A stretch of DNA of 64,000 nucleotides. It comes from a phage. The notes under the pieces were generated by a model, which was given only the letters and a program-made list of their open reading frames with translations, did no database searches and was not told the origin of the DNA. Within the stretch, counting starts at the first letter, position 1; every line of letters starts with the position of its first letter. The stretch lies in NCBI GenBank assembly GCA_033286805.1, contig GCA_033286805.1_4727.1. One strand, 5' to 3'. This document shows positions 3,109 through 60,930 of this stretch, piece by piece. Position numbers and translations under genes: made by a program.

Positions 3109-3371
3109 TATTGAATTCCTTTTGATAAGAATAACTGAATATCGGTAAACTGTTCTTCAGGAACATCGTCAGCAGCCGTTAGAACCTTAGAGCCATGTTC
3201 ATTGAGGTAAGCTTCCCGTAGACAACGATGACGTCGATTGGCTTCCTGGAACTCAGTGTCCGTCATGTAAACCAGCGTAAACTTCGAACGTTTATTCGGA
3301 TTGTATCTCTTATTACGTTTCTTTGGTTTCTTCGCCATAATAGCCTCGTGAAGGTGGATGGATACACCCAT
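3108..3371 (-). CDS. small basic protein (87 aa)
   Basis: ORF with Lys/Arg-rich segment AKKPKKRNKRYNPNKRSK; stop/start junction with 2152..3108. Confidence 0.45.
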   Translation of the reverse strand: MGVSIHLHEAIMAKKPKKRNKRYNPNKRSKFTLVYMTDTEFQEANRRHRCLREAYLNEHGSKVLTAADDVPEEQFTDIQLFLSKGIQ

Positions 3372-3386
3372 CCACCTTCCTCCATG

Positions 3387-4750: not shown

Positions 4751-4788
4751 CTTTATCTCCTTAACGGTTGCTGGTAACGCGGCATAAA

Positions 4789-4806
4789 CCCTCCCCGAAG
4801 GGAGGG
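4789..4806 (-). terminator. intrinsic terminator hairpin (minus-sense CCCTCCC-UUCG-GGGAGGG) with TTTATGCCG tail
   Basis: 7-bp GC stem with UUCG tetraloop 11 nt after the stop of 4817..5374. Confidence 0.6.
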
Positions 4807-4816
4807 TGATTAACGA

Positions 4817-6603: not shown

Positions 6604-6627
6604 CACGTAAGTAATATAGCCGTGAAA
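6604..6627 (-). promoter_or_regulatory. early-promoter-like motif (minus-sense TTTCACGGCTATATTACTTACGTG)
   Basis: One of four near-identical copies, each 49-94 nt upstream of a minus-strand start codon; core TATATTAC. Confidence 0.5.
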
Positions 6628-6706: not shown

Positions 6707-6740
6707 CTCCTCCCCAGGAAAGGTGTGGGGAGGAGTTTTT
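6707..6740 (+). terminator. GC hairpin plus T5 run (plus orientation); role unclear
   Basis: ctcctcccca / tggggaggag 10-bp stem, 9-nt loop, then ttttt; no upstream plus-strand gene. Confidence 0.35.
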
Positions 6741-8852: not shown

Positions 8853-8858
8853 TTAAGA

Positions 8859-8884
8859 AGCTCTGCCTGACATCAGGCAGAGCT
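8859..8884 (+). terminator. hairpin terminator after the SNF2 helicase gene
   Basis: Perfect 11-bp stem agctctgcctg / caggcagagct with 4-nt loop; weak T-rich tail. Confidence 0.45.
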
Positions 8885-8951
8885 TCATGCTGTATTTGTT
8901 GCAAGATCGTATGACGTATATGCGTTGTACTTATTTAATAAGGCAGAATAA

Positions 8952-10403: not shown

Positions 10404-10459
10404 AAAAAAAAAAATAGATAGCATATCTTCCTCCCTACCCATAACGGGCGGGGAGGAAG
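10402..10459. terminator. bidirectional terminator between convergent genes (hairpin plus A13/T13 run)
   Basis: cttcctccc / gggaggaag stem at 10427..10459; 13-A homopolymer 10402..10414 gives a T13 tract for minus-strand transcripts. Confidence 0.55.
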
Positions 10460-11773: not shown

Positions 11774-14404
11774 TTACAATTCAAAATCTTCATCGATAAC
11801 ACGCTGGGTAAGCACTTTGTCGCTGAAGAACTCCACCTTGCGCTGATGGTATTTACGGTGCGCTTCGATAGAAGTACATACCAGATACCAGAACGTTGGC
11901 GTCATTCCTTCAAACTTCCCTTTCAGCTGACGCAGTCGTCCCAACACCTGAATGTTGCCGGTTCGTGACCCCATCGCTAACGTCATGAACGTCATCACCA
12001 AGTCAGGAAGGTCGATACCGGTACCTGCCGATTTCACGGTTGTAACGCTAATATCGTTATCCAGCAAGACCATGAAATCTTCTTCAGCAGTATAAGGACC
12101 GATCTCTAGCTCAGGAATACGTTCACTGAGATAATGCGACAACGACTTACACATATCAACGGTTGCACAATACACCAGCATCTTCATACCTTCCTGATAC
12201 TGGTTCATAAAACCTTTGATAATAACGGTATAGATGAAGTTAAAGTACGCGAGTTTGAGTTGCTTGTTCTTCATGATAGACTGTTCAAATATCGTGTGCG
12301 AATAAGCTCCACCAAACCCTTTGTATCTGACTTTATCTGTACTGCGTAGTCGATATGTTACCGCATTTACCGCAATGTATTTCTTGTATTCGCCTTTCGC
12401 ATAACGGGCTTCTTTCGGATACATCAAATACAGCATCTGTTCGATAAACGGATCATCGGATACCGCTGTTGCCGACAGATAAATGATTTCCGGAATATTG
12501 GCGTAACACTTGACCTTAAACAAGAAATGCAATGCTTCGTGACACTCGTCATGAATCAGCAAACCTATGCCGGTCTTTTCCCAAAACTCAGCGGGATGGA
12601 AGGCATATGGCGCAACGCAGTTATTCTTCTCGTAGTCCGCAATATAACGTTGGAACATGTTCAAGGAGAACAATGCGATTTTGAAGTCGAGTTCACCCTG
12701 TTCAACCAAGGTTTGAAACTCCAGCATGCTGTAACGAGGAATGTCGGGATGCGGTGGATCCTCCTTAGCGTTCCCGCGTATCTCGATAACATCCCCTGGT
12801 TCCATCCCGAAGAAGTTCAGCAGCGAGCTTCGCCAACCTGGCATATACCGTGGAGAAAGTATAATGCCTGTGCGCACACCCCGTCTAAACACGATTTCCT
12901 GCGACATCGCGGTGTTGTGTGTGACGATAAAGTCTTTCACCACAAACAACGCTGAAGGATCATCGATCGTAATGCAACGTGCATCCGCAACACGGGAAGG
13001 TTTGATTGACAGTACACGCAGCATACTTTCGAAGTATTGTCCGTCGACAGGACAACGTTCCAGCTTCTTCGGAAGTGTAACGATTTCATGTGGACGTTTA
13101 TACCGTATCGTAACCATGTACGCCAATCGTCCCTTATGTCTTTCCCCCTTGTAGGTGTAATACGGTTGTTTAATACGTAGACGAGCATATCCACCGATCG
13201 AACGAACCAAGTAGATAACGTCATCTGAAAGCTGTTTGCTCGAAGTACAGAAAACAATAGATCCGCCTTTATCTACCGTTCCGTCGGTATCGATAAGACC
13301 TGCAAGTATTTCGCAACGCTGTCTATGCGACGCCATCATGTACTGTTTCGGAACAAACTTCTCCCAGGCTCGTTTACCCATCAACCCCAACTGATCAAGC
13401 GCGGATGCTGTCTCCGACCGCCCACCGTAATTGATTAACGTTGCGGCAGGCGTCTTCGTTACCGCATAGTCGTATTTGTCACGGTACTGTATTTCACAGT
13501 CATCAGGAAGACGACTTAACACCTTATTCAAGATGAAATCGTCAGGAGTTGTAATGATTGGAGATGTCGTTAAATGACCGTCCCCTAACAGAACACCAAG
13601 CACGTACGGATCAAGCGGTAAATCTGCATCAGGAGTATCCTCAGACTCACAATACGGAATGTAAAGTCGTTTATTGGACAGCTCCAGGATACGAATCATC
13701 TCAAGTGTATTGATAACCCGCATGGGATAAGGATTGTTTTTGTCCCATCCCCAGTTAGGTCTCATGCACGCCCAGAGATGCTCGCCGCAGGCTTCAACAC
13801 GACGACCGTCAGCAAAGACAATCTCATAGAGCTGTTTTGCTTTATGGTCGAAGATATTGGTTACCTTCGTTGGTCGGCCATTAGCAGCCGTGATGGTATC
13901 ACCTAGCTTCAAATCGCCTAATTGACGCCATCCGCCAGGGACTTTTACGAGCGTGGTAAGCGGATTCGCTTTACCAGACCCCGTTTGAGCGGTGTTTAGG
14001 CTCATTCTGAAGGGGGTATCCTTACCCCCGTTCATGTACTCCAGCCATTCTTGTTGATCTTCACGCCACGGAAACTTCCATTTCTTTACGAACTCCACTT
14101 CCTTACCTGGTACCGGATCGTGATAAACGATTTCCAACCACTCTTTTCGGATTCCTCGAGAGAAGATAAAATCCAAAAACGATTTCAACTGTTCGCGGAG
14201 TAAGTATACCTCGCTATAATCGCTTCTCGCTGCGGCGTAGGTGTTAATGGTATCGGTGACCATTCTCCGTGTACGAGGGTCGCGTCGTTTCCGTAGATGC
14301 AAACAACGGTCTCGAAGGTAATGGCCAATCAAATGGGCAAATCGAAGTCCGTATCCGCTCAGCCTCATGCCATGCGAGAAGACGTCGATACGAGCTAACT
14401 TCAT
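11774..14404 (-). CDS. SF2 DEAH-type helicase interrupted by an intein (876-aa precursor; mature helicase about 524 aa)
   Basis: Extein halves TGSGK / T reconstitute a P-loop GSGKT after removing residues 146-497; downstream DECH box and SAT motif; ATGA overlap with upstream RNAP gene. Confidence 0.75.
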   Translation of the reverse strand: MKLARIDVFSHGMRLSGYGLRFAHLIGHYLRDRCLHLRKRRDPRTRRMVTDTINTYAAARSDYSEVYLLREQLKSFLDFIFSRGIRKEWLEIVYHDPVPGKEVEFVKKWKFPWREDQQEWLEYMNGGKDTPFRMSLNTAQTGSGKANPLTTLVKVPGGWRQLGDLKLGDTITAANGRPTKVTNIFDHKAKQLYEIVFADGRRVEACGEHLWACMRPNWGWDKNNPYPMRVINTLEMIRILELSNKRLYIPYCESEDTPDADLPLDPYVLGVLLGDGHLTTSPIITTPDDFILNKVLSRLPDDCEIQYRDKYDYAVTKTPAATLINYGGRSETASALDQLGLMGKRAWEKFVPKQYMMASHRQRCEILAGLIDTDGTVDKGGSIVFCTSSKQLSDDVIYLVRSIGGYARLRIKQPYYTYKGERHKGRLAYMVTIRYKRPHEIVTLPKKLERCPVDGQYFESMLRVLSIKPSRVADARCITIDDPSALFVVKDFIVTHNTAMSQEIVFRRGVRTGIILSPRYMPGWRSSLLNFFGMEPGDVIEIRGNAKEDPPHPDIPRYSMLEFQTLVEQGELDFKIALFSLNMFQRYIADYEKNNCVAPYAFHPAEFWEKTGIGLLIHDECHEALHFLFKVKCYANIPEIIYLSATAVSDDPFIEQMLYLMYPKEARYAKGEYKKYIAVNAVTYRLRSTDKVRYKGFGGAYSHTIFEQSIMKNKQLKLAYFNFIYTVIIKGFMNQYQEGMKMLVYCATVDMCKSLSHYLSERIPELEIGPYTAEEDFMVLLDNDISVTTVKSAGTGIDLPDLVMTFMTLAMGSRTGNIQVLGRLRQLKGKFEGMTPTFWYLVCTSIEAHRKYHQRKVEFFSDKVLTQRVIDEDFEL
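12914..13969 (-). mobile_element. intein (352 aa) with LAGLIDADG homing endonuclease; class-3-like (Ala1, WCT triad)
   Basis: Hint block A-like N-terminus TLVKVPGG...GD...NGRP; two LAGLIDADG motifs (LGVLLGDGHL, ILAGLIDTDG); C-terminal FIVTHN followed by Thr+1; residue 1 is Ala; Trp in GEHLW, Cys in ARCITIDD and Thr before HN fit the class-3 WCT pattern. Confidence 0.65.
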
Positions 14405-17038: not shown

Positions 17039-17152
17039 AATCTCATTTCCTCTTATACGTTAGGATAGATGACATGTTGGATATACGTTGCCTTTGCATA
17101 TATTGCTTTATTTCCGTCAGAAATAACGGAAAATAAAAACAACGACATAATT

Positions 17153-17182
17153 CCCTCCCACCTCCACATGGGAGAGGGAGGG
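17153..17182 (-). terminator. hairpin terminator (ccctccc / gggaggg)
   Basis: GC stem followed on minus sense by ATTATGTCG and a T-rich run. Confidence 0.45.
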
Positions 17183-18016: not shown

Positions 18017-18045
18017 CCTCCTCCCACCACATGGGTAGGAGGAGG
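18017..18045 (-). terminator. hairpin terminator (cctcctcc / ggaggagg)
   Basis: 8-bp stem followed on minus sense by TTTATGCTG. Confidence 0.45.
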
Positions 18046-21037: not shown

Positions 21038-21066
21038 CCCTCCCACAGCGTAAAGCGTAGGGAGGG
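21038..21066. terminator. hairpin terminator between convergent genes
   Basis: ccctccc / gggaggg stem; plus-sense tail CATTTATGCCG. Confidence 0.5.
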
Positions 21067-21097
21067 CATTTATGCCGTCGTTCGATGACTTAATACA

Positions 21098-25658: not shown

Positions 25659-25682
25659 CACAAAGGTAATATAAGCGTGAAT
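25659..25682 (-). promoter_or_regulatory. early-promoter-like motif (minus-sense ATTCACGCTTATATTACCTTTGTG)
   Basis: Same motif, 58 nt upstream of ATG 25608. Confidence 0.5.
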
Positions 25683-30937: not shown

Positions 30938-30961
30938 CACTTAAGTAATATAGCCGTGAAA
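30938..30961 (-). promoter_or_regulatory. early-promoter-like motif (minus-sense TTTCACGGCTATATTACTTAAGTG)
   Basis: Same motif, 94 nt upstream of the membrane-protein gene. Confidence 0.5.
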
Positions 30962-31768: not shown

Positions 31769-31810
31769 GATTGTCCTCGTTTTCAATTTTAAGATTGCAT
31801 GCGGCATAAA

Positions 31811-31835
31811 CCCTCCCCGCCTTATGCAGGGAGGG
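31811..31835 (-). terminator. hairpin terminator with TTTATGCCG tail
   Basis: ccctccc / gggaggg stem. Confidence 0.55.
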
Positions 31836-31850
31836 TAGCCATTAAATGGA

Positions 31851-32749: not shown

Positions 32750-33122
32750 GCTACTTCGTATCCGCAGCATTACCTGCAGCTCCTGGTGTTACCAGGATGT
32801 TGAGAGTATATCATGTCCATATTCCAAATGGAACGTAGGACTTCCGCGCTGGATCTCGCTTGAGACCGCTTACTCGTTGAACGTTCTCCTAAACGGAGCT
32901 TCGCTGCTGATTGGACATTGTTACGTACGGTAGGCGTCCCATTAAAGGGATTTTCATTGAAGCCGCGTACATCCGTTACCTTGTTTCTACCTTATCGGTT
33001 CCTCTTACGAGGCGTAACGGCTTTAGCCTATTCCAGCAATTCACGGAATGCATATTCTCCTTTTCAGGAGATAAGGCCATGGCTCTGGCATCACCGTCAA
33101 AGTCCACGTATCTTCAGTATGG
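32750..33122. repeat. structured element A (about 373 nt), unit 1 of a diverged tandem pair
   Basis: Shares collinear conserved blocks with unit B (ccgcagcattacctgcagctcctggtgttaccagga, gctgctgattg, ccttatcgg, ggctttagcc, cagcaattcacggaat); no ORF above 61 aa. Confidence 0.6.
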
Positions 33123-33480
33123 TTCGCTACTCCATACCCGCAGCATTACCTGCAGCTCCTGGTGTTACCAGGACGGAGAGATCATCTCATCACCCACGAA
33201 GGGTGTTCCGCGCTACCCTCAGCGAATTCGAGGGACATGATCGTTGAACCTTCCACCGATAATCGGCGGCTAGGCTGCTGATTGAACATTGTACGTTGGG
33301 GTGGCATCCTGGTGCAGGACTGTCGTTGAAGCCTCCCAACATCCACTCACTTATTTCCGCCTTATCGGCTCCCACAAGGGCAGAGTGGCTTTAGCCCGTC
33401 TCAGCAATTCACGGAATTCAAGCTCTTCCTTTCGGAAGGCAGGGCCTCATTTGAAGCGTTGTATCCCTTAAGGATCATCA
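33123..33480. repeat. structured element B (about 358 nt), unit 2 of the tandem pair; overlaps last ~26 codons of the beta' N gene
   Basis: Collinear with unit A; stems differ by compensatory changes (aggc/gcct vs gggc/gccc; tctcc/ggaga vs cttcc/ggaag). Confidence 0.6.
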
Positions 33481-36758: not shown

Positions 36759-36782
36759 CACCTAGGTAATATAACCCTGAAA
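36759..36782 (-). promoter_or_regulatory. early-promoter-like motif (minus-sense TTTCAGGGTTATATTACCTAGGTG)
   Basis: Same motif, 73 nt upstream of the candidate chimallin gene. Confidence 0.5.
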
Positions 36783-38046: not shown

Positions 38047-38090
38047 CTCCCTCTTCCCTTGCATCCTCCCAACCCGTAAGGGAAGGGAGG
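38047..38090. terminator. extended imperfect hairpin between convergent genes
   Basis: tccctcttccct / agggaagggagg arms. Confidence 0.4.
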
Positions 38091-38108
38091 ATGGGGTGGT
38101 GGATTATG

Positions 38109-40337: not shown

Positions 40338-40365
40338 AACCGATCCAGCCGAAGCCAGATCGGTT
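40338..40365 (-). terminator. intrinsic terminator: 12-bp stem, UUCG tetraloop, U-tract then TTTATGCCG
   Basis: minus-sense aaccgatctggc-ttcg-gctggatcggtt with two G-U wobbles that are valid only on the minus-sense RNA. Confidence 0.65.
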
Positions 40366-44361: not shown

Positions 44362-44384
44362 GCTTTCTCCTAGACGGCATAAAA

Positions 44385-44404
44385 GCCTGCCCCGAAGGAC
44401 AGGC
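44385..44404 (-). terminator. intrinsic terminator: 8-bp stem, UUCG tetraloop, TTTTATGCCG tail
   Basis: minus-sense gcctgtcc-ttcg-gggcaggc (one U-G wobble). Confidence 0.6.
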
Positions 44405-44414
44405 TCGATAGAAC

Positions 44415-52899: not shown

Positions 52900-52928
52900 C
52901 CTCCTCTGGGAATGGAACCCAGAGGAGG
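52900..52928. terminator. hairpin between convergent genes
   Basis: Perfect 11-bp stem cctcctctggg / cccagaggagg with 7-nt loop. Confidence 0.5.
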
Positions 52929-53296: not shown

Positions 53297-53320
53297 CTCC
53301 CCGCCTGTATTAACGGGGAG
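53297..53320 (-). terminator. hairpin after the terminase gene
   Basis: ctccccg / cggggag stem, 10-nt loop. Confidence 0.4.
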
Positions 53321-53334
53321 TCTGCAAACTACTC

Positions 53335-55566
53335 TTAGAAAAAACCGCCCGGACGGTATTGACCCATCGTCATCCACGCATTACGAGAAATATTCCGTTC
53401 ATTCGAAGAGCGGCTTATTTGACGATAAGTATTCGCTCGTTCCTCCCTTGCTTTCGTGATCATCGCATCAATAGAAACAGCCGCTGAATCTTCCCCACGT
53501 ATTTTTCCTTTATACGTAAGAAGCTCTGCCTCCAATCGATCCAAGATAAGACCGTTGGTTTCGGTCTTAAGCAACTCATAGATTTCAGCAACGCGTTGAC
53601 GCAGCTTCGCCTGCTGTTGGTTAAGATACGCTTCATACGGATCGATTTCACCCGTCACAGATGCCGGTAAACGACTCATGACTTTAAGTGGATCGATACC
53701 GTAATGAATCTGTTTCTTAGCACGCTTGATGAACCACATCGCTAACATCCAGGCGAACGTCATGTCATCGTGCATTCCATCCTGGTGGTCGACACGCCCA
53801 TCTTTGATAACCAATCCAAGGATCTCGGAACACAACATCTTATCACGTAATTGCCCACGGGTTTCTACAATACCTTCCATCAAGATGTCGGAATACAACT
53901 CCATACGTTTGCGCGCATCCGTTGTGAAGCCCAGGTGCCGTTTACGTTGAGCGTACCAACTTTCATCACGCATACTCAATGGTAATTTCAGGTCTTCGAA
54001 CATCGCTGGGTTATCAGCATGTCTGTCCACAATAGTGTTGTACACGCGTTTGAACACGTCGATGCCCGCTTGTCTCAGGAACTCTTCAATTGCGTCTAAC
54101 AGCATGATTGCACTGCTTTTACGTTCAGGAATCAACGTAACGTTCTTAAAACGCATCATGAAGTTGGCCATCCAACGAGCAAAAGAAAGCAGGCTCAGTT
54201 TATTAAAACGTCCTGTCGCAACAACTTCTGCTGTTTCCACATCCACCATCACCAAACCGATCGCGTCACGACCGATCGCGTCACTGGTGTCTAAACCAGC
54301 AACCACCTTATTGTTCTGCATGTATGTCTCGATTTGACCTCGAGGTATATACCAGTTAATGCAGTAGCCTTCAGGTGAGATCTCGATATGGTCGATTTCA
54401 CGTTGTCCTGCCATGATCATTTCAACCATCTCAGCGGTTAACGGGCTTTCTGCTGAACCGTTGGTCCAGATGTTCATGTAGTCACGGTCTTTCTGAAGTT
54501 TATCACCTTCCGTTTCGTTCATGGTTTTTGCTAACCATTCGTCACTGAATCCCAATTGGGCATGGTTCCATTGTGCCCCGATCCTGACGGTCGCTTTGCT
54601 GAGCTCGCACGGTACGTTGTTCAATACCGTCTGATGCAGATGCTTTTCGTTACGGCAGTCAAAGAAACTTTCAGAGAACGGCGCGGAACGCATGAAAACT
54701 TCATAAGCCCATTTGCCTTCGCGTTTATCCAACTCACCTGCCGTTGTCGTATAGATGATACTTGTCAGGTCGCCGTTGCTTAATGCTTCATCGCGTGCCG
54801 CACCCATCGCACCGATACCAGCAGGAACAATAATTTCGATATACTTCGTAAATGCGGTTTCGTCGCTATGGAATATCGGGGTTGTTAGGCCACGACCGAT
54901 GTTCGTTGCTTGTTTCTTATCCGAACGTGGAATCTTTACCGATAACTTGTTCTTGAAACGTGTGTAGGTTACGTTCTCTTTGTTCGATGAATCGCGACTA
55001 TCCAGCGTCCAGAGATATGCAGGCAACAGATCGCGTATACTACGCACGTCTTCTACCGTTTTCGTACGGGCGTCACCGTCTTTTGTTAACTGAATAACCT
55101 CGGTGTTTCGACTACGAACGTAGGTTAGATAACAGAACAATCCTAACATGGTCATGGATTTACCCGTCTGACGTATCTGTATCTGATACCAGTTCGTTCG
55201 GGTAAATATCCCCCAGAGCATCGGAATGTTACCGCGGTTAGCACGGAATGAGATTTTGTTATCACCCGCTTTAGCCGGAACGCGCATCACTTCACGGAAG
55301 AAGTACCATGGATTAAGATAGCATTCCGCACTGATCATCTGAATCTGTTCTGACGTCAAATTCGGTGCGTGGGGATCAACACCAATCAATCTTGGGTTTA
55401 ATAACGCCATGAAAAACGCAGAGTTCCGGACACCGAATTCACGACGATATAAGATCGCTAAATCACGCCAACTTGTGTTTGTTGTTTCCCAGTGTGGAAC
55501 AGCCTGAGGAAAATAATCCCAATCTTCCTCAAACAGGATGATTTTCTTCGGATCGACAATCGACAT
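53335..55566 (-). CDS. terL: terminase large subunit (743 aa)
   Basis: Terminase-type P-loop IRQTGKS (T4 gp17 has SRQLGKT); C-terminal nuclease-like acidic motifs GLDTSDAIG and HDDMTFAWMLAMW; strong GGAGGAG SD. Confidence 0.65.
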   Translation of the reverse strand: MSIVDPKKIILFEEDWDYFPQAVPHWETTNTSWRDLAILYRREFGVRNSAFFMALLNPRLIGVDPHAPNLTSEQIQMISAECYLNPWYFFREVMRVPAKAGDNKISFRANRGNIPMLWGIFTRTNWYQIQIRQTGKSMTMLGLFCYLTYVRSRNTEVIQLTKDGDARTKTVEDVRSIRDLLPAYLWTLDSRDSSNKENVTYTRFKNKLSVKIPRSDKKQATNIGRGLTTPIFHSDETAFTKYIEIIVPAGIGAMGAARDEALSNGDLTSIIYTTTAGELDKREGKWAYEVFMRSAPFSESFFDCRNEKHLHQTVLNNVPCELSKATVRIGAQWNHAQLGFSDEWLAKTMNETEGDKLQKDRDYMNIWTNGSAESPLTAEMVEMIMAGQREIDHIEISPEGYCINWYIPRGQIETYMQNNKVVAGLDTSDAIGRDAIGLVMVDVETAEVVATGRFNKLSLLSFARWMANFMMRFKNVTLIPERKSSAIMLLDAIEEFLRQAGIDVFKRVYNTIVDRHADNPAMFEDLKLPLSMRDESWYAQRKRHLGFTTDARKRMELYSDILMEGIVETRGQLRDKMLCSEILGLVIKDGRVDHQDGMHDDMTFAWMLAMWFIKRAKKQIHYGIDPLKVMSRLPASVTGEIDPYEAYLNQQQAKLRQRVAEIYELLKTETNGLILDRLEAELLTYKGKIRGEDSAAVSIDAMITKAREERANTYRQISRSSNERNISRNAWMTMGQYRPGGFF

Positions 55567-55577
55567 ATAAACTCCTC

Positions 55578-55606
55578 CGATGGAGGGTGCCGGGCACCCT
55601 CCATCG
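55578..55606 (-). promoter_or_regulatory. 29-bp perfect palindrome in the leader of the terminase gene
   Basis: cgatggagggtgcc-g-ggcaccctccatcg (14-bp arms); 3' arm is 12 nt upstream of the terminase SD. Confidence 0.4.
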
Positions 55607-55616
55607 TTGTATTACC

Positions 55617-57356
55617 TTATGCGACTTTACTAATAACGACTGCAGTGATACCAAGATGTAGGTCGACGCCATTCTGTACTTTAATCCAGCGGATATACAG
55701 GTTAGCGTTATCCTGTCCCGTACCACCTGGGACGTTATTGTTCCTATTCCATTGCGAGATTTCGAAACGTTTCTGCACGTTAGGACCAACCATGATTTCA
55801 AAGTGGGTCGGTTCTGGTGCTTTCGATTCCGTTTTCTCAAGATAGAGCGGATGCGTCGGGTAGTAAAGTTGGTTCAACCATTCACCCAGATCTGAGTGTT
55901 TGTTCGTCAAGTCAACATACGCGTTACCAGCAACATCGTAAGTAAACAGCGCTTTCGTGTTACGACCGTACACATCCGTTGTTGTCGGCGTTGTTTGCGA
56001 ACTGAACGTTACTGTCCAGTAATCACCGGATGTTGCCGAACCTGCTTGCAGTAACGTCATTCGAATCGTCTGCGTATGACGTACGCGTTTGTAAACAGTA
56101 GGATCGACTTCATCTAACCAGATGTTGTACGCAAATTCCTGAGGTTGTCCGTATTTCTTCGGATTAAACTCAGGGCTGTTCAGCGCCAATTGTACTTTAT
56201 CGGTTACGTTGTAGTAACGTTCACGGTCGACGTTGTACAACCAGAACACCAGCTCGTACCCCACAGCATCAGATACCCATTGTGGATAGCAGAACAGTTT
56301 AACACTGTAAGCCCCTTTCGCTTCTTTAGAAACGACGGTATAAGGGACACTGATATGTTTCACTGCGCCAGGTAACGCGTAGGATGTGTCCTCATCGTCG
56401 TCCAGGTAGTAGTGTAACGCCAACGGATGTTTGCTGTTGATGACCTGGGACGTGAAGACGTTAAGGCCGTCCAACACAACCTTGTTACCAGTAACCGGCC
56501 AATGTTTAATGGAACCGTCACTGTAGGTGACTTCAGCCTGAAGGTCAACAGAGTCCAGGTTGACATTAATCGGCAGCTCGAGTAGTTTGGTATCGCTGCT
56601 GCTCAGCCATGTTGACTTCAGTCGTACCCCGTCTTCCAGAATATATTTAATACCCTGGTCTGGTGTGCGTACATAGTCGGTGATACGAACGATCATACGT
56701 TTCATGGATAGCGGCTGTGGACCATCGCCATAACCTACTACCATCACCTGCTCAAAATCTTCGACGGGCTTAATGCAGTAACCTTCACGAGGTGCCCAGA
56801 TAGCTTTATTCGTTCCGTCTTTGTAAGCGATAAGCTGACACGGAATGAAATCGCTGATCTTATTCCCGCTGTTGTCATACATCGCACTGATGATTTCGCC
56901 TTTGGCGCTGATATCAGAACCACGGAACACAGCAATACGTCGAATATCTGATCCATGCAAATGGAAACGACGATCGATATTCATTGTAGCAGGGATCGTG
57001 TTCGTATTAATCAATACACGCCATGTATCGTACGACCACGTCGGATCAATACCTTCGAAGGTTGTCGTCCCATCGTCCTGACCATCGAACGGAGCAGAAA
57101 GCTGACCGATAAGTTTAAGGGTACTTAGTTTAGTGCGATCGTCTACGGCGATAACACGGTATACTGCGTTGGTATCCCAGTCTTCAACTTTATCGTCCAC
57201 GTTGGGAACGTAAAGTTTCCAGTCTTCTTCAACGCCATTATAGATCTCTTTATACGCATAGGTGGTATAGCGTCTGTCGAGATCCTGAATAGCGAGTTTA
57301 TCCGGATGCTGTTGTGCATAAAGCACCGGATTGGTAATCTCTCTTCCCATTATCAC
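55617..57356 (-). CDS. hypothetical protein (579 aa), possibly virion-associated
   Basis: Long ORF directly upstream of terminase; Thr/Ser/Asp-rich. Confidence 0.55.
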   Translation of the reverse strand: MIMGREITNPVLYAQQHPDKLAIQDLDRRYTTYAYKEIYNGVEEDWKLYVPNVDDKVEDWDTNAVYRVIAVDDRTKLSTLKLIGQLSAPFDGQDDGTTTFEGIDPTWSYDTWRVLINTNTIPATMNIDRRFHLHGSDIRRIAVFRGSDISAKGEIISAMYDNSGNKISDFIPCQLIAYKDGTNKAIWAPREGYCIKPVEDFEQVMVVGYGDGPQPLSMKRMIVRITDYVRTPDQGIKYILEDGVRLKSTWLSSSDTKLLELPINVNLDSVDLQAEVTYSDGSIKHWPVTGNKVVLDGLNVFTSQVINSKHPLALHYYLDDDEDTSYALPGAVKHISVPYTVVSKEAKGAYSVKLFCYPQWVSDAVGYELVFWLYNVDRERYYNVTDKVQLALNSPEFNPKKYGQPQEFAYNIWLDEVDPTVYKRVRHTQTIRMTLLQAGSATSGDYWTVTFSSQTTPTTTDVYGRNTKALFTYDVAGNAYVDLTNKHSDLGEWLNQLYYPTHPLYLEKTESKAPEPTHFEIMVGPNVQKRFEISQWNRNNNVPGGTGQDNANLYIRWIKVQNGVDLHLGITAVVISKVA

Positions 57357-60875: not shown

Positions 60876-60930
60876 ATGTAATTCCTTTATTACGGCATAT
60901 AAGAAAACGGGTTAAGCACACAGATTTACG

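Follow-up and report, generated by a model that had tools for sequence, protein, structure and literature searches.

A conserved stem-loop in front of the large terminase gene of a Goslar-like jumbo phage, a candidate leaky transcript end

What does a perfect 29-nt palindrome do in the short gap between a virion-protein gene and the terminase gene of a phage? The question is raised by a 64,000-nt stretch of phage DNA (GenBank assembly GCA_033286805.1, contig GCA_033286805.1_4727.1; hereafter the window). An initial annotation had placed the palindrome at 55578-55606 and proposed for it an RNase III processing site, a translational operator uncoupling terminase from the genes upstream, or a DNA-level site such as a packaging element. 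The window is 96-97% identical to Escherichia phage vB_EcoM_Goslar, a jumbo phage of the phiKZ-like, nucleus-forming kind, and the palindrome region is 98.4% identical; Goslar carries the identical palindrome, without annotation there.

As first described, the palindrome sits in a 50-nt gap that separates the stop of the upstream gene from the start of the terminase gene; both genes are on the minus strand. The upstream gene (55617..57350, minus) is the orthologue of Goslar gp221, a virion structural protein of the phiKZ gp26 family, in the same gene order as in relatives. The 579 aa originally given for it hold from an upstream GTG, whereas the ATG annotated in Goslar gives 577 aa. Farther upstream lie gp220, a baseplate spoke protein homologous to phiKZ gp27, and gp219, a homologue of phiKZ gp28. 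The gp221 TAA stop (55619-55617) and a 10-nt linker, GGUAAUACAA, occupy 55607..55619 (minus) before the stem. On the other side, the large terminase gene terL (Goslar gp222, phiKZ gp25 family; 53335..55566, minus) is preceded by the Shine-Dalgarno sequence GGAGGAG (55572..55578, minus), the first G of which is the final stem base, and by the spacer UUUAU (55571-55567, minus); the ATG is at 55566-55564 (minus). The ribosome-binding site (RBS) had been put 12 nt from the 3' arm; in fact it adjoins the arm, sharing one G, and it is the ATG that lies 12 nt away.

On the plus strand, 55578-55606 reads CGATGGAGGGTGCC-G-GGCACCCTCCATCG, which confirms a perfect 29-nt palindrome with 14-nt arms that are 100% complementary around one central base. 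Because a 1-nt loop is impossible in RNA, the sense transcript takes the form of a 13-bp stem with a 3-nt loop, folding at -24.7 kcal/mol: 5' arm CGAUGGAGGGUGC (55606-55594, minus), loop CCG (55593-55591, minus) and 3' arm GCACCCUCCAUCG (55590-55578, minus). This hairpin is the sixth most stable continuous-stem hairpin of the Goslar genome, and its 101-nt context has a folding z of -3.9 relative to shuffles. Among 100 dinucleotide-preserving shuffles of the window (spacer 0-8), the longest perfect arm usually measured 9-10 nt and reached 14 nt once, while the real window holds two perfect palindromes with 14-nt arms. The palindrome is real and non-random, far beyond chance. It had also been called rare, which is correct relative to random sequence but not within a Goslar-like genome, where intergenic hairpins are common. 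The second 14-nt-arm palindrome (8857-8886, plus; GAAGCTCTGCCTGA-CA-TCAGGCAGAGCTTC) stands right after the helicase gene gp160, lacks the CCTCC words and carries a terminator annotation in Goslar.

About 20 strong intergenic hairpins occur in the window. In Goslar, continuous-stem hairpins of -17 kcal/mol or lower number 28 in intergenic and 4 in coding DNA, in a genome that is about 12% non-coding, and 31 of the 60 co-directional gaps of 40-150 nt carry a hairpin. Most of the Goslar intergenic hairpins pair a C-rich 5' arm with a G-rich 3' arm and are followed by the tail TTATGCCG or TTATGCTG. In phiKZ, 3' ends mapped by ONT-cappable-seq yielded the terminator motif BCCYCCCCHWWDGGGRRGGBYTTATKYYGT at 61 sites (Putzeys et al. 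2024, PMC10914365), and motif A of 201phi2-1 is a matching terminator motif (PMC11512511). At least 26 Goslar hairpins fit the phiKZ motif. Moreover, 17 of the 173 Goslar occurrences of TATGYYG lie within 15 nt after a strong hairpin, against about 2 expected and 1-4 for control heptamers. Of the 46 intergenic TATGYYG copies in Goslar, 19 are not followed by any co-directional gene, so the tail belongs to the terminator and is not merely a promoter. The Goslar hairpin class is thus a terminator class.

Copies of the motif in the window are found at 4788-4807 (minus), 6707-6735 (plus), 10427-10459, 17153-17176 (minus), 18017-18045 (minus), approximately 21045-21075 (plus), 31810-31836 (minus), 38062-38093, 40338-40365 (minus) and 44383-44406 (minus). 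The Goslar record annotates only some of these copies as terminators, its predictor needing a U-tract. The TATGYYG tail contains the phiKZ late-promoter core TATG, and tails that follow a hairpin could double as re-initiation promoters, though the 19 copies mentioned above have no co-directional gene to serve. For gp167 (start at 17148) and gp183 (start at 31807), the annotated start is the ATG of a TTATG terminator tail, with the G-rich arm of the hairpin mimicking an RBS; gp183 has an in-frame ATG with its own AGGA 13 codons downstream. Both start calls may be wrong, as may the 31-aa gene gp167 as a whole. For annotation in general, tools that require a U-tract miss many hairpins in this phage, and a TTATG terminator tail can be mistaken for a start codon.

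How far does the palindrome belong to this class? Like the phiKZ-type terminators, it forms a GC-rich, sense-strand stem-loop downstream of a stop codon, the stem beginning 10 nt past the gp221 TAA, and its arms use the same GGAGG/CCTCC words. PhiPA3 and RP12 even have versions with the canonical tail at the corresponding junction. Unlike them, it has reversed arm polarity: instead of a C-rich 5' arm and a G-rich 3' arm it carries GGAGGG in the 5' arm and CCCTCC in the 3' arm, read on either strand, which is the opposite of the arm order in 26 aligned canonical Goslar sites. The two also differ in what follows the stem, where the motif has TTAT(K)YYGT and the palindrome has GAGGAG, so that the terL RBS precedes any TTAT. 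The nearest TTTAT starts 7 nt past the stem, and the TATGTCG found 10 nt downstream of it includes the terL start codon; most canonical sites are spaced at 0-6 nt.

A profile was built from a MAFFT alignment of the 26 canonical Goslar sites, as a sequence-only model because RNAalifold found no consensus pairs, the stems being out of register. At 55559-55587 it scored 6.2 bits with E = 1.3, which is not significant (the seven best members in the window scored 16-24), and the match fell weakly on an alternative arrangement, CCCTCC-ATC-GGAGGAG-TTTATATG. Given the reversed arms, the lack of an abutting TTAT and the weak profile score, we do not file the palindrome as a member of the canonical motif. 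Nor does the sense strand offer the U-run of a classical Rho-independent terminator, its tail being GAGGAGUUUAU, and a terminator scan found the full stem terminator-like on the plus strand only. Classical intrinsic termination at the palindrome should be weak, with GAGGAG directly after the stem. Most likely, the palindrome is ordinary chimallivirus gene punctuation, a non-canonical member of the intergenic stem-loop class.

Four other hairpins with the G-rich arm first occur in Goslar, at 74839-74869, 131602-131621, 139534-139563 (3350-3379 of the window) and 222185-222207. All four lack a TTATG tail and lie 2-6 nt upstream of an RBS at co-directional junctions, and hairpins of this polarity may form a sub-class.

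The same junction can be followed across genera. The gene order gp27-like, gp26-like, terL is kept in LucasX, Ea35-70, Proteus phage 10, PhiPA3 and PA7 (phiKZ-like), as well as in PhiEaH1, PCH45, vB_pir03, SPN3US and RP12, and a strong hairpin of unrelated sequence lies between the gp26-like stop and terL in 10 of the 10 syntenic relatives examined. These hairpins vary in arm polarity and in distance from the RBS; their tails include a canonical TTATGC in PhiPA3 and RP12 and a U-tract in PCH45. In SPN3US, vB_pir03, PhiEaH1, PCH45 and Goslar the gaps measure just 44-51 nt, with the RBS right after the stem. No such hairpin precedes terL in 201phi2-1 and OBP, in which the upstream neighbor of terL is a divergent gene. 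Therefore, the hairpin accompanies the end of a co-directional upstream gene rather than terL itself, which argues for a function at the transcript end and against a packaging site or a terL-specific operator. The conserved junction position is suggestive rather than overwhelming, as about half of comparable gaps carry a hairpin; the chance of ten in ten would be roughly 0.5^10 for independent junctions, which those of related phages are not.

A search of viral and metagenome contigs added eight genomes to the Goslar group, each 90-97% identical over 5 kb. Eight of the nine Goslar-like genomes carry the hairpin, including the most divergent (about 90% identity). Across the nine, one of which lacks the hairpin, variation touches none of the 26 stem positions, two of the three loop positions (CCG, TCG, TCA) and one of the ten positions of the linker before the stem, as compared with 40-50% of third codon positions in the flanking genes. 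Other nearby hairpins behave likewise, with fixed stems and variable loops and flanks. This pattern indicates that the stem is under purifying selection. A covariation search of viral and metagenome contigs returned only Goslar-like genomes of 90-97% identity, with no stem changes, and the next relatives beyond the group share at most 41% protein identity; with no compensatory changes in the Goslar group, selection on pairing is not separable there from selection on sequence.

The exception is L019 (ERZ1643250 NODE-25, a full-length contig of 238 kb), in which a clean 24-nt deletion, aligned to 55579-55602 of the window, runs between two directly repeated GGAGG copies. What is left after the loss of the palindrome is CGATGGAGGAGTTTATATG, with the terL RBS and its spacing intact. 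The deletion most likely arose by slippage at the palindrome, although it could be an assembly artefact. A stem that is conserved yet deleted in L019 appears to be under selection but dispensable, which fits a modulatory role.

On this evidence, we favor, as rather probable, a reading in which the palindrome would serve as a leaky terminator or pause site, as a 3' exonuclease barrier or as both, and so closes the gp219-gp221 message. As a stem-loop in minus-strand RNA, it would end the baseplate and virion-protein genes gp219-gp221, the homologues of phiKZ gp28-gp26, either by halting or pausing the phage RNA polymerase, by blocking 3'-to-5' exonucleases, or by both. Transcripts that end at the hairpin, or are trimmed to it, would carry the structural genes, and terL would be carried by the read-through fraction only, giving less terminase message than structural-gene message. 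The hairpin would at the same time leave the neighboring terL RBS free. Termination or stabilization, and the effect on the expression ratio, are what we infer from the structure, position, conservation and class membership of the hairpin. The original idea of an RNA element that sets terminase apart from the upstream genes gains comparative support from the ten of ten relatives and the conserved stem; the specific mechanisms offered for it are not supported.

In this reading, transcription enters terL from upstream. terL is a late gene, as are the structural genes, and the phiKZ late-promoter core is TATG, with its G as +1 (PMC4666361). On the minus strand between 55567 and 56400, the sole TATG is at 55919, and only 11 nt separate the stem from the ATG, from which it follows that terL is transcribed through the hairpin. 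The TATG at the terL start codon itself was rejected as a late promoter, since transcripts initiated at its G would lack the start codon, and alignments with homologues begin at terL residues 2-10, the N-terminal region being conserved. A TATGCCG without a hairpin at 60893-60899 (minus), 17 nt upstream of the gp219 ATG, is a candidate late-promoter core for a gp219-gp220-gp221-terL unit, and terL-bearing transcripts probably start there or upstream of it, before gp219. At the other end of the unit, a stem-loop lies downstream of terL at 53297..53320 (minus; CUCCCCGUU-AAUACA-GGCGGGGAG), its stem kept and its flanks variable in the nine Goslar-like genomes. A hairpin at 52900..52928, between the convergent genes gp223 and gp224, is likely a bidirectional terminator that ends the unit. 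In one related genome (L016), the 7-nt loop of this last hairpin is inverted, AATGGAA for TTCCATT, with unchanged stems, which suggests DNA-level recombination or template switching in the palindrome.

Leaky intercistronic terminators and hairpins that stabilize 3' ends are known to set expression ratios within operons, as in the T7 terminator T-phi after gene 10 and the malE-malF REP element. The palindrome is similar in that it is stable, separates a structural gene from one whose product is needed in lower quantity, and has a downstream gene that relies on read-through. It differs in having no U-tract after it and in the enzymes concerned, the phage's own multisubunit polymerases. Terminators mapped in 201phi2-1 that lack predicted intrinsic features have been reported to terminate in vivo as well as intrinsic ones, with longer stems being stronger. 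If the reading of a leaky transcript end is right, a nucleus-forming jumbo phage holds its terminase message at a lower level than that of the baseplate genes transcribed with it, with no promoter set aside for terL. Since the gp26-terL junction carries a stem-loop across chimallivirus genera, it would be a convenient site at which to measure termination and read-through by the unusual RNA polymerases of the phage, with the natural deletion in L019 as a ready-made control.

The best of the alternatives, although unlikely, is that the palindrome acts in the terL leader, either as a hairpin that locks the anti-Shine-Dalgarno CCCUCC of its 3' arm away from the RBS or as a protein-bound tuner of translation. 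The stem adjoins the terL RBS, which is predicted to be mostly unpaired when the 5' arm is present. When the RNA begins in the loop, the predicted fold joins CCCUCC to GGAGG at a local -7.5 kcal/mol, and those bases are left with an unpaired probability of 0-0.03; the canonical-terminator profile also aligned, weakly, to the arrangement that ends in TTTATATG. In addition, ChmC of PhiPA3 has been reported to have binding peaks near start codons, with no sequence motif found. However, L019 loses both the decoy and the anti-Shine-Dalgarno sequence and keeps a normal RBS, so the hairpin is not needed for translation. The terL genes of 201phi2-1 and OBP have no such leader hairpin, and the relatives' hairpins differ in arm polarity and RBS distance. 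The leader does not resemble an operator of the MS2 or RegA type either, as six of the seven Shine-Dalgarno bases lie outside the stem and five of these six are predicted to be unpaired with probabilities of 0.78-1.0. With the RBS predicted to be exposed and kept in L019, the proposed translational operator is not supported.

A pairing of the gp221 end with the terL AUG, present in the minimum-energy fold, was rejected as a stop-start link: 27% of shuffles of the 5' flank gave an equal or better fold energy, and the pairing is not seen in relatives.

It is a little less likely still that the palindrome has little or no current function, being an inverted duplication around the RBS or a decayed terminator in which single changes are mildly harmful. 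The natural 24-nt deletion between GGAGG repeats, in a full-length 238-kb contig, and the lack of a canonical tail are what such a relic might display. Against it stand the invariance of all 26 stem positions where 40-50% of synonymous-type sites vary, the presence of the hairpin in eight of nine genomes and its retention at the junction across genera.

A switch that ties terL translation to intact read-through RNA appears improbable. In the modeled folds, the GGAGGG of the 5' arm would act as a decoy that holds CCCUCC, and an RNA with its 5' end inside the palindrome, whether by initiation or by cleavage, would mask the RBS and be silent. In a related and similarly improbable idea, the nucleus-associated RNA-binding protein ChmC might recognize modules of a hairpin plus an RBS close to start codons. 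In T4, a leader hairpin of the lysozyme gene e sequesters the RBS in long transcripts, and the likeness lies in alternative Shine-Dalgarno pairing that is set by which 5' sequence is present. The logic here would be reversed, because the full-length palindrome RNA frees the RBS and only a truncated RNA would mask it.

Processing by RNase III or another endonuclease that separates terL mRNA from the upstream message is very doubtful. T7 early and late mRNAs are processed by RNase III at intercistronic duplexes, and the palindrome is likewise a perfect intercistronic duplex in a late phage message. The duplex of a classical RNase III substrate, however, extends over some two helical turns, frequently with an internal loop, and the palindrome is much shorter, just 13 bp with a 3-nt loop and no internal loop, which speaks against the RNase III site originally proposed. 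Rfam gave no family at the palindrome site, whether the region or the whole window was searched, and a cut in the stem would release CCCUCC, which would then mask the terL RBS.

There is equally slight reason to see a DNA-level site, whether for pac or terminase recognition, a cruciform or a protein-binding palindrome. The perfect palindrome stands beside terL, its arm sequence is found at a single site in the full Goslar genome, and two central changes in one genome (L005) keep perfect symmetry. In three others (L004, L017 and L018), by contrast, a central T/G pair breaks the symmetry of the DNA. The hairpin tracks the upstream co-directional gene, its sequence turns over completely between genera, and Goslar DNA is reported to be circularly permuted. 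A packaging element is further discounted by its absence upstream of terL in 201phi2-1 and OBP, the unrelated sequences in the ten relatives and the deletion in L019.

An antisense terminator on the plus strand is just as remote: the stem is followed there by the T-rich TTGTATTACCTTATG and was the top terminator-like match of the scan, and about 9% of mapped phage terminators are antisense to genes (PMC10914365), but the nearest upstream plus-strand gene, gp224, has its own hairpin at 52900-52928, and the plus-strand TTATGCGAC is the opposite strand of the gp221 stop and final codons, so that coding explains its conservation.

Several further features stand out in the window. The SF2 helicase gene orthologous to Goslar gp164 (11774-14404, minus) encodes 876 aa, compared with 524 aa in Goslar. 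LAGLIDADG_3 and Hom_end are the Pfam families matched by the extra segment of about 350 aa, whose end reads ...VTHNT. Its appearance is that of an intein carrying a homing endonuclease, absent from Goslar. Between pieces of an RNA polymerase gene, two tandem copies without open reading frames (32782-33102 and 33158-33465, minus) resemble a group I intron. The Rfam model RF00028 matches both along its entire length, with 28 and 26 bits where the gathering score is 50, and their shared segments are 75-88% alike; at this place Goslar has one annotated intron and an HNH endonuclease gene. Finally, TATATTAC occurs at 6611-6618, 25666-25673, 30945-30952 and 36766-36773, always on the minus strand, with all four copies intergenic and in similar contexts (YTATATTACYT..GTG). 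It resembles an early-promoter core such as the phiKZ early consensus, and its count of 4 alone is not above chance (2.3 expected).
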